From a virus (lineage: Duplodnaviria; Caudoviricetes): DNA of 64,000 nt. Below are positions 4,157 to 57,078 of this stretch, piece after piece. The position numbers and the translations under genes were made by a program. The first letter of the stretch is position 1; the number at the start of each line of letters is the position of its first letter. The stretch covers positions 288,001 to 352,000 of IMG/VR virus record IMGVR_UViG_3300015615_000196, one strand, 5' to 3'. Under the pieces are notes generated by a model. The model had not been told where the DNA came from, made no database searches, and saw nothing but the letters and a program-made list of their open reading frames with translations.

Positions 4157-5235
4157 ATGCAGACTTGATTGCACCACAAATTGTGTCGGTAGAAAACCGT
4201 CCGTTGGATGCAACTATTGAAATTGTGCATGGTGTTGAGAAACATCCGAATGCAGACAAACTTGATCTTTGCATGATCTTGGGTTTCAAGTGTGTGACCA
4301 AACGTGATCAATTCAAAGACGGTGACAAGGTGATTTACGTTCGCCCGGATACGGTATTTCCGTTGGCTGATTGGGCAGCAGAGTATCGTAAGTATTCACC
4401 AAAGAGAATCAAAGCAATTCGTCTTCGTGGAGTATTCAGCGAAGGCGTAATCATTCCATTCGATGCAGTGCCAGAAGACGTGCGTAATCTCATTGTCAAC
4501 TTTGCAGTGGGAGATACCGTTGCCGAAATTCTTGGCATCACGCACTACCAAGAACCTGAACCACAGGATCAATCTGCAAAAGGTGGTCTGCCTCTTGGCA
4601 TTCCGAAAACCGATGAAGAACGTTTTGAAGGTATGAAGTATCTTCCGTTCGGAGAGGTCGTTGATCTTCAATTGAAGATTGATGGTCAGTCATGCTCGTA
4701 CTACTACAACTACGAAACCAAAGTCTTTGGTATTCTTGGTCGTAGTCTGGAATTGAAGTACAAGGTGGTTGACGAAAACGGAATCGAAAGCATTGCCAAC
4801 AACAAGTATGTCGAGAACATTCCGATCTACGACATCGAAAATAAATTACGTGACTTCTGTGAGAAGGAACAAATTTCACTTTGTATCCGAGGTGAATCTT
4901 ATGGTCAAGGTTTACAGGGACATGAAATCAATCCTCATGCGAAAGCAAACAAGGGTTGGGCGATGTTCTCCGTATTCTTGATCACCGAGCATGTGTACGC
5001 TGAAAAGGGTCACAAGTATTACTTTAAGAATGTGGCGCAAGCTACAGGGCTTCCTATTGCCCCAATGATCGAAGAAGATGTAGAGTTAACACCTGAATTG
5101 GTGAAACACTATTCCGAAGAAATTGAAAAGCTGAACTACAATGGCATTCAAGCGTTACCGTTTGAAGGTGTTGTGGTAAAGACAAAAGCCGGATCATTCA
5201 AGATCATCAATAAGTACTACGATGCAAACAAGTAA
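4129..5235 (+). CDS. RNA ligase, DRB0094/Rnl5 family
   Basis: N-terminal OB/tRNA-binding HPNADKL; RLRGVFSEG; PKTDEER; KIDG motif I; EGVVVK; SFKIIN. Confidence 0.88.
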   Translation: METYPTANVNADLIAPQIVSVENRPLDATIEIVHGVEKHPNADKLDLCMILGFKCVTKRDQFKDGDKVIYVRPDTVFPLADWAAEYRKYSPKRIKAIRLRGVFSEGVIIPFDAVPEDVRNLIVNFAVGDTVAEILGITHYQEPEPQDQSAKGGLPLGIPKTDEERFEGMKYLPFGEVVDLQLKIDGQSCSYYYNYETKVFGILGRSLELKYKVVDENGIESIANNKYVENIPIYDIENKLRDFCEKEQISLCIRGESYGQGLQGHEINPHAKANKGWAMFSVFLITEHVYAEKGHKYYFKNVAQATGLPIAPMIEEDVELTPELVKHYSEEIEKLNYNGIQALPFEGVVVKTKAGSFKIINKYYDANK

Positions 5236-6012
5236 ATGAAAGGTCAACTTACATTTCAGAACTACAAGTCTTACACGAAAGAAGATCAAAAGACTTGGGG
5301 TGCTCTTTTCGAACGTCAGGTGGATAACCTGAAAAAAGACAACAAGGTTGTCGAAGAGTTTTGGGAAGGTGTCAATAAGTTGAAAATCAAAAGAGGTGAA
5401 ATACCCAATTTTGAAAACGTCAACAAGATACTCAAGCCACTGAACAATTTTGAGATCATGGGTGTGACTGGTTTGCTGGATGATCAAATCTTCTTCCAGC
5501 TAATCAAGAATCGCAAGTTCCCGGTGACCACTTGGATTCGCAAACCTCACCAGATCGACTATATTGAAGAACCGGATATGTTTCATGACTTGCTCGGTCA
5601 CGTACCGTTCCTTGCTCATAAATCGTATACGGACTTACTGGTTGAACTTGCCGATGCTGCCTTACTTTCGTTCCAGAGAAACGACAAAGTGTTTCAGGAT
5701 GCGTTTGTGCGCTTTTACTGGTACAGTGTTGAGTTCGGTCTTCTCCTGAACAAAGAAGGAAAGCACCAGATTTACGGAGCAGGGATTCTTTCATCGTTCT
5801 CGGAGACAAACAAAGTGTTTGAAGCAGAGAGTGTGAAGAAGGATTTCAGCTACGACATTTTGAAGGAAGACTTCGATAAGCAGCACCTTCAAAATTTCTA
5901 CGCTGTGCTTTGTGGTCAGGACGGAGGCATTGGCTTTGCAAGTGGAATTGAGCGACTACGGGAATGGGTCGTTTATGTAAACGATCAACAACACGGGAGG
6001 CACAATCCATGA
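5236..6012 (+). CDS. phhA: phenylalanine 4-hydroxylase (biopterin-dependent aromatic amino acid hydroxylase)
   Basis: YIEEPDMFHDLLGHVPFL, RFYWYSVEFGL, YGAGILSS; Fe ligands His/His/Glu intact. Confidence 0.92.
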   Translation: MKGQLTFQNYKSYTKEDQKTWGALFERQVDNLKKDNKVVEEFWEGVNKLKIKRGEIPNFENVNKILKPLNNFEIMGVTGLLDDQIFFQLIKNRKFPVTTWIRKPHQIDYIEEPDMFHDLLGHVPFLAHKSYTDLLVELADAALLSFQRNDKVFQDAFVRFYWYSVEFGLLLNKEGKHQIYGAGILSSFSETNKVFEAESVKKDFSYDILKEDFDKQHLQNFYAVLCGQDGGIGFASGIERLREWVVYVNDQQHGRHNP

Positions 6013-9115: not shown

Positions 9116-9132
9116 ATTCGTTTTGTTTTTTG

Positions 9133-9218
9133 TAGCACTGACGGGAATCGAACCCATACGTCCATTACTGAACACCAGATTTTAAGTCTGGCTTGTCTAC
9201 CAGTTCCAACACAGTGCC
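9133..9218 (-). tRNA. tRNA-Leu(TAA)
   Basis: acceptor GGCACTG/CAGTGCT, CCAGA-CTTAAAA-TCTGG anticodon arm, long variable arm, GGGTTCGATTCCC; CCA not encoded. Confidence 0.93.
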
Positions 9219-9490: not shown

Positions 9491-9709
9491 CTACGTAATA
9501 ATAGCAATTCCTTTTTTAATTTCAAAATTCGAACAGTAGCCTTTCATCACGAATCGTGGTTGGCGTTTGCTGATGTGTCCGTAAGTCGGTACACCACATA
9601 CTACGTTATCAACAATGTGACAGGTCTTGTTGTAGTGTACCGAAATCTTGCAACGTCCTGCGCTTTGGGATGCAGGTTTATTGAAGTGAAAGAAGAATGC
9701 TTTTTTCAT
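9491..9709 (-). CDS. hypothetical protein
   Basis: ATGA coupling; ends in TAG. Confidence 0.7.
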   Translation of the reverse strand: MKKAFFFHFNKPASQSAGRCKISVHYNKTCHIVDNVVCGVPTYGHISKRQPRFVMKGYCSNFEIKKGIAIIT

Positions 9710-10209
9710 ACGAGTGCGAGATCGGCCTTGACCTTTTTCAATTGGTCTTCAAGGTCTTTCTTCTTTGCATTGAGAACTTTTTTCTGAATGGTCTTCTCAT
9801 TGAATTTCTCGGCATGGAGACGACCATTGAGAACTTGCTTTTCAATCTCGTTGAATGCTGAGATCGTAGTGTTCTCTACGTTGGTCTTCTTTTCAATTGC
9901 ATTGTAGTCGTAGAAGTCCCATTCCAATTTGATCGGAATCAAAACTGATCCACGATCAGTCTGATATGGCTTTCCACCGTTGAGCGTAAATGCGTTCAAC
10001 TTGAAGTATGCTTCTTCACCCTTTGCATTCAAACGCTTGAACCATTTCTGTTGCATGACGAATGAGTTCAACGAGTCGTTGACATACTTGATGATGAATT
10101 CAGGTGACTTTCTCAACGATGTGAGAATGACACGTCTTTCTTTATCCAATGCTCCGAGGCGTTGGCAAAGTTTTTCGTATTCTGAACTTTTTGTTGCGCG
10201 AGTTGCCAT
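9706..10209 (-). CDS. hypothetical protein
   Basis: 167 aa ORF downstream of promoter motif. Confidence 0.75.
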   Translation of the reverse strand: MATRATKSSEYEKLCQRLGALDKERRVILTSLRKSPEFIIKYVNDSLNSFVMQQKWFKRLNAKGEEAYFKLNAFTLNGGKPYQTDRGSVLIPIKLEWDFYDYNAIEKKTNVENTTISAFNEIEKQVLNGRLHAEKFNEKTIQKKVLNAKKKDLEDQLKKVKADLALV

Positions 10210-10229: not shown

Positions 10230-10254
10230 TGTACGTAAAATTACGAAAAAGGTT
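10230..10254 (-). promoter_or_regulatory. phage promoter AACCTT-N13-CGTACA
   Basis: motif match. Confidence 0.7.
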
Positions 10255-10261
10255 GGAAGAA

Positions 10262-10540
10262 AGTAGCAGGAATGTGGCGGCTTATGAACAGTCGCATTGC
10301 TTTTCGTGGCATTTCGGACATCCCGAAGTAATGGGTTAATAGTCCTCATGTTCTCCACTGTGGTTATATCACCACATTCCCCCTTACGTTATCCTTGTCC
10401 CTGTTAAGACAGGTGAGCCATTGCTGGCAAGTTCCCTTATCGGTTTGCTACAGTCCTGTGGTGTGCAAGAGCACGTTTCAGGGCGTGGGATGAAAAATTC
10501 GCCCTACAGTGTCAGTGGATTGTCTACCAATCCTCTACCT
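10262..10540 (-). ncRNA. unclassified multibranched structured RNA(s)
   Basis: stems GGATTG/CAATCC, AGGGCG/CGCCCT, GTGC/GCAC, GTAGCA/TGCTAC, GCCA-GCAA-TGGC, CCTGT/ACAGG, GGAATGTGGTG/CGCCACATTCC; GC-richer than flanks; no credible ORF. Confidence 0.6.
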
Positions 10541-10550
10541 ATTTTTCAAG

Positions 10551-10621
10551 TGGATACTGGATGATTCGAACATCCGTTAACCCCCTCAATGGGGCCGTTC
10601 TAACCGCTAAACTAAGTACCC
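10551..10621 (-). tRNA. atypical tRNA-like gene (non-canonical anticodon loop ATTGAG; possibly Gln-TTG derived)
   Basis: acceptor GGGTACT/AGTATCC, D-arm GTTT-AGCGGTTA-GAAC, T-arm GGATG-TTCGAAT-CATCC; anticodon arm GCCCC-ATTGAG-GGGGT. Confidence 0.7.
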
Positions 10622-10626
10622 GTTTT

Positions 10627-10795
10627 CGGGAAGGTTCGGAGTTCCACACGAACCTCTCCATACCTAATTCTGAATGTCGTGTGCGCTTCACAGCTACTCC
10701 CCTTGGATTAATGGTTTTCGATGGCCAATGGCTCCCCGCACAACGAGTACAAAACTTCAAACGGTATGGCGCATTCATACTATGCTACCTTTCCC
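10627..10795 (-). ncRNA. tRNA-shaped RNA with a 98-nt structured insert in the anticodon loop
   Basis: GGGAAAGG/CCTTCCC acceptor, GCAT/ATGC D-stem, CCATACC/GGTATGG stem enclosing 98 nt, GTTCG/CGAAC T-like arm. Confidence 0.7.
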
Positions 10796-10797
10796 TG

Positions 10798-10865
10798 ACA
10801 CAACTTCACGCACTGCGTAACCAATGCATCATGGCCGATTTACGTCAACCACTTCGAAGTTATGT
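10798..10865 (-). ncRNA. three-way-junction RNA with complementary (kissing) loops
   Basis: P1 ACATAACTTC/GAAGTTGTGT, P2 TGGTTGA/TCGGCCA, P3 ATGCATTG/CAGTGCGT; loops CGTAAA and GTTACG; G-U pairs work only on the minus strand. Confidence 0.65.
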
Positions 10866-10868
10866 TTG

Positions 10869-10980
10869 TGGGAAGGGATGGACTTGAACCACCAACCTCT
10901 CAGCTTTGCGATCTGTAAAGATGCATACCATTGCATTTGATTTCCGCATCACTGAGTTCTCTAACTTGAGATACCTTCCC
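10869..10980 (-). ncRNA. tRNA-shaped RNA with a 48-nt insert in the anticodon loop
   Basis: GGGAAGG/CCTTCCC-A acceptor, TCTC/GAGA D-stem, CTCAG/CTGAG stem, GGTGG-TTCAAGT-CCATC T-arm. Confidence 0.8.
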
Positions 10981-10983
10981 ATT

Positions 10984-11095
10984 TCAGGAGCGTCATGCGG
11001 TCATTGATTGTGTGGAGGCTTTAGCCTAATTTCGATGCATGAACACCTCACCACTAAAACATTTCTGCGTTTCAATCAACAACCCTTTCTCCTGA
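10984..11095 (-). ncRNA. unclassified ~110-nt rod-like RNA with possible pseudoknot
   Basis: TCAGGAG/CTCCTGA, GTTGATTG/CAATCAAT, GTGG/CCAC, AGGCT/AGCCT; TCATGC/GCATGA cross-pairing. Confidence 0.55.
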
Positions 11096-11103
11096 CCTTT
11101 TAT

Positions 11104-11209
11104 ACTGCTAAACATCACCGATGTGTTCATTCCATAACAGATACTGTTGCTCGATCAAAGACTTGGTTTAGTGCCAAAATTGCTCGACAGTACTCGATGT
11201 CTGTACAGT
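11104..11209 (-). ncRNA. unclassified structured RNA
   Basis: ACTG/CAGT, AGACATC/GATGTTT, GTACTGT/ACAGTAT, TTGG/CCAA nested stems. Confidence 0.5.
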
Positions 11210-11220
11210 TGGATTTCTTG

Positions 11221-11292
11221 CGCGGATACCCGGATTCGAACCGAGGTCAAGGGATTTAGAGTCCCCTGTTCTGACCACTAAACTATATCCAC
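11221..11292 (-). tRNA. amber suppressor tRNA (anticodon CTA)
   Basis: GTGGATA/TATCCGC-G acceptor, GGGGA-CT-CTA-AA-TCCCT anticodon arm, CTCGG-TTCGAAT-CCGGG T-arm. Confidence 0.9.
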
Positions 11293-11303
11293 GTATGTTC
11301 CTT

Positions 11304-11329
11304 TATACGAAAAAAGGGGACGCAAGGTT
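11304..11329 (-). promoter_or_regulatory. phage promoter AACCTT-N14-CGTATA driving the ncRNA cassette
   Basis: motif ends 12 nt before the 5' end of the suppressor tRNA. Confidence 0.75.
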
Positions 11330-11335
11330 GTTACC

Positions 11336-11539
11336 TTACTCCCCTTTATTTTCAATTTTTTCTCCGATCTCCGTGATCATGAGCGTCATCAAAATGCCGA
11401 AGCTATACCACGATTGAAGTACAGTTTTGAAGAATACTTCGTTATCAGGTTCAGTCTTCTCGACAATTGAAATTCCTTTCAATGCACCAGCAGTTGCAAA
11501 TACACCTGCGAGATAAATACCAAATAATGTCCACCACAT
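11336..11539 (-). CDS. small membrane protein
   Basis: two hydrophobic segments. Confidence 0.6.
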   Translation of the reverse strand: MWWTLFGIYLAGVFATAGALKGISIVEKTEPDNEVFFKTVLQSWYSFGILMTLMITEIGEKIENKGE

Positions 11540-56013: not shown

Positions 56014-57078
56014 GTGAACATAAAATACTTCACAACGATCAACTACATTGAAGAGAACGCCCTCAATCAAATAGAGGACTTGCGTCAGGAAGAACACATC
56101 CAAGATGTTGCCGTGTTCCCTGATATTCATTTCTGTGACGAGAAGGGAATACCAGTCGGATTGACTTTTGCAACAAAGGACGTTGTCTATCCATTGATCA
56201 CTGGTAAGGACATGGGTTGTGGAGTTGCGTACTTGAAGATACCAAACCAATATATCTTAAAGCCTTTCAACAAAGACGAACACTATCGTGCTTTCGACAA
56301 AGCACACTTCAACATGACTGATGAAGGACTTGGTGGTGGTAATCACTTCCTTTCATTGGAAGTAGACGCTGGTAACTTGTATGTTATCGTTCATACTGGA
56401 ACACGAAACAGAGGCATCTACATGTACCAACGTAACATGGGATTGCTACAAGAATACGGTAGCAAGAAATACTTCACCGTTGACTTCCTGAACACGAACT
56501 ATCCGAAGTGGTTTGATGAATACAACGGAGTCATTGAATACGGCAAGCAACGTAGACTTCAATTCCTTAAAGGTACGTTTGATTTCCTTGTACGTAACAA
56601 GTACGTTATGAGCATGAACTTCGATGCGTTGCTTCGTGGTGATTCAGTTCATAATCATATCAAGAAGGAAGGAGATCAATACATACACCGTAAGGGAGCA
56701 ACCGAACTCGGCAATGAGATCGTAGTTATTCCGTTGTCGATGACCAGAGGAAGTTTGTTTGTCAAACAACGTTTCAGATATTCAAGTGTTGGGCAAGATA
56801 CCAGTAACTTGAACTCCTGCTCTCATGGTGCTGGAAGAAAGTTAAGCCGTACCAAGACCATGAAGTACTGGCATAGTTCTTTGAAGGAGAGAGAACGAAA
56901 GGAATACCGTGAACGATTCAATGAGTTACTTGATCGTAGTGGTGACTTCCCAAAGGGTTACATACAAGAGTTTGACTTTGCATACAAAGACTCCAATGAC
57001 TTGTTGAGAGAGCAACCGTTCCTTCAACAGATCACCAGAACCACACCAATCTGTACAGTTAAATTCACCGAGATATGA
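56014..57078 (+). CDS. rtcB: RtcB-family RNA ligase
   Basis: PDIH...PVG, DMGCG, LGGGNHF, HTGTR, HNH, HRKGA, SHGAGR. Confidence 0.9.
   Translation: MNIKYFTTINYIEENALNQIEDLRQEEHIQDVAVFPDIHFCDEKGIPVGLTFATKDVVYPLITGKDMGCGVAYLKIPNQYILKPFNKDEHYRAFDKAHFNMTDEGLGGGNHFLSLEVDAGNLYVIVHTGTRNRGIYMYQRNMGLLQEYGSKKYFTVDFLNTNYPKWFDEYNGVIEYGKQRRLQFLKGTFDFLVRNKYVMSMNFDALLRGDSVHNHIKKEGDQYIHRKGATELGNEIVVIPLSMTRGSLFVKQRFRYSSVGQDTSNLNSCSHGAGRKLSRTKTMKYWHSSLKERERKEYRERFNELLDRSGDFPKGYIQEFDFAYKDSNDLLREQPFLQQITRTTPICTVKFTEI

Follow-up and report, generated by a model that had tools for sequence, protein, structure and literature searches.

A conserved cassette of tRNA-shaped and unclassified structured RNAs in a giant-phage genome

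What does a giant phage keep in a kilobase of its densely coding genome that appears to encode no protein? The question is raised by positions 10,255 to 11,329 of the 64,000-nucleotide (nt) stretch analysed here (the window; positions 288,001 to 352,000 of the IMG/VR virus record IMGVR_UViG_3300015615_000196). There a first-pass annotation had described a non-coding, GC-richer interval between two phage promoters, filled on the minus strand with transfer RNA (tRNA)-derived and other structured RNAs, and had proposed an undescribed RNA system. Our comparative findings indicate that this cassette is almost certainly a real RNA operon maintained by selection. Below, W denotes the window's own cassette, L-numbers denote individual loci, and G000:C1 is the full genome of the window phage, which is complete at 362,603 bp with direct terminal repeats.

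A conserved RNA cassette at one locus

All modules lie on the minus strand, in the order first described and with every named module present: amber tRNA, m2, m3, m4, m5, m6, m7 and m8a-c (Table 1). They nearly abut, as had been claimed, with spacers of 3-11 nt, and together cover ~95% of the span between the promoter-like motifs. The description of a GC-richer stretch bounded by two such motifs also held, with a GC content of 46.1% against a genome mean of 40.6% (standard deviation 2.3; top 1.5% of windows) and the motif AACCTT-N-CGTAYA at both ends. This motif occurs 29 times in the genome, compared with 4-15 times in shuffles, and 11 of its sites lie within 80 nt of the start of an open reading frame (ORF); a sigma-70 scan did not detect the sites at the cassette ends. 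Hidden protein genes were considered and rejected, as ORF matches between cassettes fell in inconsistent frames and strands.

We located homologous cassettes via relatives of the flanking proteins. Complete cassettes were found at the same locus in eight relatives (L007, L010, L013, L014, L017, L018, L025 and L029) and a partial one in L024; counts out of nine refer to the window plus these eight. The flanking protein of the complete cassettes is only 50-63% identical, and the core order is fixed in 9/9 cassettes: amber tRNA, m2, m3 or m3b, m4, m7, m8c. What lies between the core modules varies, and includes other tRNA-shaped RNAs, further small RNAs and occasional small protein genes. In addition, m8c occurs in two phages with another gene context (L021, with its near-copy L022, and L023), and m2 in L021/L022.

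The proposed folds were 91-99% paired, compared with 27-61% in slid controls. Two-sided changes were found at 10 of 26 pairs in m4, 14 of 23 in m8c and 8 of 23 in m2 (0/500 shuffles each), and at 6 of 16 in m7 (1/500), the shuffles ignoring relatedness; most of the m8c changes come from two distant copies among its 12, a set that includes those of L021 and L023. For m3, nine two-sided changes were seen on five sequences, with the pseudoknot helix altered on both sides in L013, and for m6, whose cloverleaf body is conserved in four genomes, 10 of 47 pairs changed on both sides across four sequences. Minus-strand folding z-scores were -3.8 for m4, -3.4 for m5, -2.6 for m7, -2.4 for m3, -0.15 for m6 and 0.0 for m2. 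With m2 and m6 near zero, the support for these two is comparative, and homologues were essential.

Rfam matches within the cassette fell on tRNA bodies only, those of the amber tRNA, m7 and m4, and m6 did not match the tRNA model. No match to GOLLD, ROOL, RNase P, SRP, 6S or riboswitch models was found for m2, m3, m5 or m8 (E ≤ 10 in the window, E ≤ 1-3 in relatives). This blank is informative because the same search detects a true GOLLD RNA elsewhere in the genome (G000:C1:191172-191593; L248:1673-2094, +; 159.8 bits, above cut-off), 107 kb from the cassette. The comparative evidence thus points to at least three RNA families absent from Rfam: m2, m3 and m8c. The claim of an undescribed structured-RNA cassette, conserved, bounded by promoter-like motifs and covarying, was borne out, and three of the contrary outcomes named beforehand (no covariation, known Rfam families throughout, decaying pseudogenes) were not observed.

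Table 1 Features of the cassette and its flanks, in minus-strand order (window positions).
Feature	Position	Strand	Description
Flanking 67-amino-acid ORF	11336..11539	-	synteny anchor; relatives have a 65-71-amino-acid ORF before the cassette
Upstream promoter-like motif, AACCTT-N-CGTATA	11304..11329	-	recurs in genome and heads relatives' cassettes; putative activity
Amber (CUA) suppressor-type tRNA	11221..11292	-	canonical cloverleaf, no encoded CCA; Rfam tRNA 65.8 bits
m2	11105..11217	-	unclassified multi-stem RNA abutting tRNA 3' end; possible short pseudoknot
m3	10985..11095	-	rod RNA with pseudoknot; 5/9 cassettes
m4	10869..10980	-	tRNA-shaped, extended anticodon arm; Rfam tRNA 46.3 bits; 9/9 cassettes
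m5	10802..10862	-	three-way junction with complementary (kissing) loops; 5 loop-loop pairs
m6	10627..10795	-	tRNA-shaped, non-canonical D/T loops, ~100-nt branched anticodon arm; 4/9 cassettes
m7	10551..10621	-	anticodon-less tRNA mimic with alanine identity; Rfam tRNA 50.8 bits
m8a	10478..10540	-	small hairpin module; only W, L007 and L014 (3/9)
m8b	10456..10491	-	small module whose base pairing overlaps m8a in part; 6/9, often without m8a
m8c	10264..10450	-	unclassified ~150-220-nt multibranched RNA, invariant internal-loop core; 9/9, no Rfam match
Downstream promoter-like motif	10230..10255	-	21 nt upstream of the 167-amino-acid ORF
Flanking 167-amino-acid ORF	9706..10209	-	synteny anchor; no Pfam or PHROG match

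Proposed processing and the tRNA-shaped products

We propose that one phage promoter drives a single precursor of the cassette RNAs, which host RNase P, and then RNase Z or exonucleases, would cut at the tRNA-shaped bodies into separate RNAs; CCA would be added after processing, because none is encoded. The products would be a working amber suppressor tRNA, non-decoding mimics (m4, m6 and m7) that join an acceptor stem and a tRNA-like elbow to a lengthened or shrunken anticodon arm, and independently folded RNAs (m2, m3, m5 and m8a-c). The mimics would bind host proteins that recognise tRNA but would take no part in decoding; most likely they would act as decoys for, or competitors of, defence enzymes that attack tRNA, a role suggested by the conservation of the acceptor stem and elbow and not of the decoding loop. 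The layout of the cassette fits a tRNA-punctuated polycistron. Phage regulatory RNAs, C4 among them, are known substrates of RNase P (PMC4919922). Phage tRNAs are reported to counter tRNA-cleaving defences, and OLD nucleases to cut anticodon arms (PMC11464382, PMC11555353, PMC12445682). Judging from sequence, we consider tRNA-punctuated processing of the precursor likely, and the chances of the full account, decoy role included, evenly balanced.

The amber tRNA leads 9/9 complete cassettes, with varying acceptor stems, and has the 7-nt loop, U33, CUA anticodon and purine 37 of a canonical suppressor. In 11 of 11 copies of m7, G1-C72, G2-C71, G3.U70, U4-A69, A73 and also U52-A62 are invariant, and acceptor pairs 5-7 vary freely yet stay paired. 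The anticodon loop has 3-6 nt of variable sequence, and the 7-nt loop with an NGC anticodon of tRNA-Ala was not found. Among the 52 genome tRNAs scored, m7 shares G3.U70 with tRNA-Ala alone, and no other has U52-A62. G3:U70 is the main determinant for AlaRS, and allo-tRNAs carrying it have been tested for AlaRS charging in vivo (PMC5389517); AlaRS had no match among the window phage's genes. m7 is probably chargeable with alanine by the host and non-decoding, and in the proposed mechanism it would carry alanine. The polycistrons of irregular tRNAs or allo-tRNAs described in that report resemble the proposed cassette transcript in that non-canonical tRNAs, some with G3:U70, are co-transcribed with suppressors. 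However, the acceptor branch of allo-tRNAs is 8/4 or 9/3 and their anticodons are genuine, whereas m4 and m7 have 7/5 branches and no decoding loop, and the cassette is phage-borne and mixed with non-tRNA RNAs. A tRNA-like gene after GOLLD (G000:C1:191735-191806) has an anticodon hairpin with a 5-nt GUUGA loop, resembling several m7 copies.

The loops of m4 and m6 are as first described, with 48 nt in m4 and, in m6, 102 nt if the closing stems are taken as 5 bp or 98 nt if they are taken as 7 bp. The m4 loop has 27-31 nt in the seven relatives for which it was measured. The terminal loop of its arm holds UUAC (UUAU in L029), a single observation that might reflect a displayed Tyr codon or mimicry of an anticodon loop. 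The idea that tRNA bodies serve as scaffolds for cargo RNAs survives in part. It is best supported by two body types found only in relatives, because their arms differ in both length and sequence (the D and T arms lie 31-74 nt apart in one type and 36-66 nt in the other); the arms of m4 and m6 stay with their own body in relatives, a poorer fit to scaffold and cargo. Further tRNA-shaped RNAs with variable anticodon arms were seen at L010:4120-4239, L025:964-1081, L007:4628-4743, L013:4752-4832, L013:5160-5246 and L018:304-427, and several of these RNAs contain a second T-loop hairpin within the anticodon arm. In the main tRNA array of the window phage, 62 nt separate the D and T arms of one tRNA-shaped gene (G000:C1:59159-59272, -).

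Several points weigh against the decoy account. Known tRNA-based phage counter-defence uses functional, cleavage-resistant tRNAs and not non-decoding decoys, and the arms of m4 and m6, which are both elaborate and conserved, together with the non-tRNA modules, suggest jobs more specific than generic titration. No partner protein was found in the phage among SmpB, the RF-1 family, AlaRS, NFACT-R, FemAB-like GNAT, TROVE and tRNA endonuclease. Finally, the 9-12 copies per module behind the covariation all come from related phages.

Alternative roles for the modules

m2 is a candidate trailer-processing element or ribozyme. First annotated as a hairpin RNA, it is instead a conserved 75-nt multi-stem RNA whose long hairpin is an insertion in a variable arm of the window genome only. 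It is present in 9/9 cassettes and in L021/L022, there after an ordinary tRNA-Phe. Nine of its ten copies start at tRNA position 77 and the tenth at 78, which puts the 5' end within 5 nt of the tRNA 3' end, as expected of theta and other ribozymes like that of hepatitis delta virus (HDV). Theta ribozymes lie within 1-5 nt of tRNA ends; most come from phages of Bacteroidota, in which a CCA-adding enzyme and a DRB0094-type ligase are enriched (PMC10879173), and the window phage has domains consistent with both. A self-cleaving ribozyme of new fold, which would trim the 3' trailer of the suppressor tRNA as theta ribozymes do in gut phages, is compatible with the proposed processing and is a serious though minority possibility. 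The nearly constant start, kept even after tRNA-Phe in a different phage, the invariant unpaired positions of m2 and the site, phage type and enzyme domains shared with theta ribozymes all fit it, but abutment to a tRNA is equally expected for any RNA released by RNase Z. Moreover, m2 had no Rfam ribozyme match, hand-written HDV and hammerhead descriptors, which had no positive control, were negative, and the putative pseudoknot had no two-sided change. We rejected a theta ribozyme as such: m2 has a covarying fold of other topology, with no nested double pseudoknot of P1, P1.1, P2 and P3 with a catalytic C in J4/2. m2 resembles theta ribozymes in being a structured RNA that begins where a tRNA ends, next to an amber tRNA and in this type of phage, and differs from them in helix order, in lacking a 7-bp P1 and an HDV core, and in belonging to a phage that uses code 11. 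Somewhat less probable again is an RNA-only host-takeover toolkit of jumbo phages, in which m2 would be a new self-cleaving ribozyme maturing the amber suppressor, the mimics (including an alanylated anticodon-less tRNA) would disarm immunity directed at tRNA or divert the quality control of translation, and m8c would be another new functional RNA class across phage groups.

Alternatively, the RNAs may be components of, or handles on, a larger assembly of RNA or ribonucleoprotein, GOLLD/ROOL-like or translation-factor-binding, made in fixed proportion, with the tRNA bodies serving mainly processing and stability. We regard this as unlikely. The fixed core order, the extra T-loop hairpins within several arms, the invariant internal-loop residues of m8c and the presence of GOLLD in the same genome speak for it, whereas m8c and m2 also exist outside the cassette, in L021 and L023, modules are freely swapped, and no covarying inter-module pairs were found, no formal test having been made. 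GOLLD/ROOL and YrlA are likewise structured phage non-coding RNAs beside tRNAs with no established function. However, no module matches the GOLLD/ROOL models and the genome's real GOLLD is far off; unlike YrlA, the cassette bodies are not circularly permuted, and Ro60/TROVE has no match in the phage. A YrlA/Y RNA identity was rejected, the only match (23.6 bits, cut-off 69) lying across a tandem-tRNA junction in L010.

A little less likely still is that m7 acts in, or blocks, ribosome rescue in the manner of the tRNA-like domain (TLD) of transfer-messenger RNA (tmRNA). Alanine identity without an anticodon, marked by G3.U70 and A73, is shared with the TLD and with the 'TLD-only' gene of phage DS6A, and a TLD-like RNA inhibits tmRNA (PMC4131195). 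Set against these likenesses, m7 has a full, covarying 4-bp D stem, a closed short anticodon hairpin, U4-A69, no messenger domain or tag ORF and no encoded CCA. A TLD lacks the D stem and a closed anticodon stem. No tmRNA was called in the window, nor genome-wide by ARAGORN at default settings, and SmpB, RF-1-family and NFACT-R genes were not found in the phage. We rejected identification of m7 as a tmRNA or TLD on these grounds (D stem, closed hairpin, absent tag ORF and SmpB match).

It is improbable that m4 and m6 are intron-containing precursors spliced to ordinary tRNAs, as in Lak megaphages, whose tRNAs carry enigmatic introns (PMC6784885). The two are alike in that the inserts are conserved and sit in the anticodon loop of tRNA-like genes of Bacteroidota jumbo phages, and the window phage has RtcB and an RNA ligase. 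Nonetheless, a single excision gave a Y32-U33-R37 loop in 0 of 12 copies, and the implied anticodons disagreed between homologues. No conserved bulge-helix-bulge and no intron match in Rfam were seen, and the splicing endonuclease PF01974 was not found in the phage. Furthermore, no insert-free allele was seen, and the arms covary as stable helices. Because no excision, bulge-helix-bulge or endonuclease supports splicing, the most fitting reading of m4 and m6 is that they are stable RNAs with long arms and do not carry introns of the Lak type.

More improbable yet is that the modules are antisense regulators released from tRNA-like precursors, like the C4 RNA of P1/P7. C4 is an RNase P substrate, as is proposed for the cassette, whose cloverleaf bodies also have extended loops, but no module matches the Rfam C4 model, and exact matches between the modules and the rest of the phage genome, on either strand, reach at most 12-15 nt, within the shuffle range, so that no complementary target was seen there. 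Finally, the view that the cassette is a mere collection of tRNA pseudogenes in decay and hairpins arisen by chance, suggested by a D-loop G missing from the window's m4, by the lack of relatives for m5 and by variable gene content, has scarcely any credibility given the strong two-sided covariation, the paired fraction far above slid controls, the invariant identity pairs and the order fixed in nine genomes.

Remaining modules, genomic setting and significance

The kissing three-way junction (m5) is real in the window, as first described, but was not found in any relative, and in three a different rod RNA occupies its slot. m3 is replaced by m3b in 4/9 cassettes (L007, L014, L017 and L029), the two never occurring together; m3b is a ~40-nt stem with an apparent H-type pseudoknot (L007:4390-4429, L017:3829-3868, L029:3796-3835, also L014). 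What had been taken for one ~280-nt multibranched RNA proved to be three separable units, m8a, m8b and m8c. Collinear similarity of m8c to 23S ribosomal RNA (rRNA) was matched by 1/150 shuffles for E. coli but by 61/150 and 86/150 for two Bacteroidota, and hidden Markov and covariance models were negative. Directly upstream of the m8c homologue in L021 and L023 lies a ~300-nt structured RNA (L021:2366-2665, -; L023:2100-2405, +, diverged), which had no Rfam match and was not found in the window's genome. The L021 copy has a 25-nt exact match to 23S rRNA at ~1910-1935, presumably the helix 69-71 region, with more similarity downstream (z 7.9), making a phage rRNA mimic possible.

Small protein genes with no PHROG match lie inside relatives' cassettes, one of 131-132 amino acids (L007:4780-5175, L014:4535-4933) and a second of 99-100 (L010:5415-5714, L013:5448-5750, L014:5265-5564). 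At the head of the L029 cassette (L029:4051-4728) an opposite-strand 225-amino-acid ORF stands between the upstream ORF and the amber tRNA, and another relative has a GIY-YIG gene near its cassette; both are possibly mobile endonucleases. At least four further recurring unclassified small RNA modules were seen in relatives (L007 ~5185-5300, L013 ~5250-5365 and L014 ~4940-5055; L013 ~5020 and L024 ~224; L025 ~910). The downstream 167-amino-acid protein, for which neither a family nor a confident fold was obtained, has more distant homologues in cassette-free loci (L016, L019) and is probably outside the RNA system. A lone tRNA-Leu(UAA) lies 1 kb downstream of the cassette (window 9132-9218, -) and also occurs in L010.

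Wider searches found no further cassettes. When the cassette, m8c, m5 and m7 were compared by BLAST with 50,697 named phages, all matches were at the level of tRNA or of chance. Protein-anchored IMG/VR scans returned no cassette-bearing locus, and one metagenome scan returned a distant flanking-protein homologue without a cassette. Exact m2 and m7 patterns had no match in IMG/VR and, among the matches listed for a loose m2 pattern, none of 80 loci gave a score under the model of m2. GTDB genomes yielded no match to the m8c pattern, and the top candidates scored in each of 151 Bacteroidota genomes yielded none to the m8c and m2 models; one 27.5-bit partial m8c match in Bacteroidota genomes was judged to be chance, as were pattern matches within coding DNA (L026-L028).

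The host is probably a member of the Bacteroidota, because the best matches of a phenylalanine-hydroxylase-like gene (Pfam Biopterin_H, window 5236-6012, +) are almost only from that phylum, the closest from Pontibacter and others. In several relatives this gene is reduced to ~166 amino acids. The window phage uses genetic code 11 (standard), with TAG ending 38 of 450 ORFs. Recoding of TAG was rejected, as reading it as sense raised coding density by less than 1 point, and no excess of long open frames after TAG was seen across its ORFs. A tRNA-nucleotidyltransferase-family domain (PolyA_pol/CCA-type, G000:C1:230396-230779), an RtcB gene in the window (~56092-57063, +), an RNA ligase gene 5 kb from the cassette and 61 predicted tRNA genes together show, as far as gene content goes, heavy investment in tRNA supply and repair. 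The nucleotidyltransferase domain lies in a 992-amino-acid open frame, unusually long for a CCA-type enzyme.

Systems of related kinds are already known, namely phage arrays punctuated by tRNAs, polycistrons of irregular tRNAs and ribozymes that abut a tRNA. A description of this cassette was not found in the literature, and overlap is possible with 10,006 viral candidate RNAs (PMC10690425) that lay outside the comparison. Besides m2, m3 and m8c, the cassette brings together in one compact operon tRNA mimics of three kinds, which are overlooked or wrongly labelled by standard annotation. If m2 cleaves itself, it would be a new ribozyme class linked to suppressor-tRNA maturation. The long-armed RNAs would be a natural counterpart of the tRNA scaffold known from RNA engineering. 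If the mimics are decoys, they would represent RNA-based counter-defence against tRNA-targeting immunity, which bears on the many odd tRNA genes of jumbo phages. A giant-phage family keeps a 1-2 kb, mainly RNA operon at one fixed locus.

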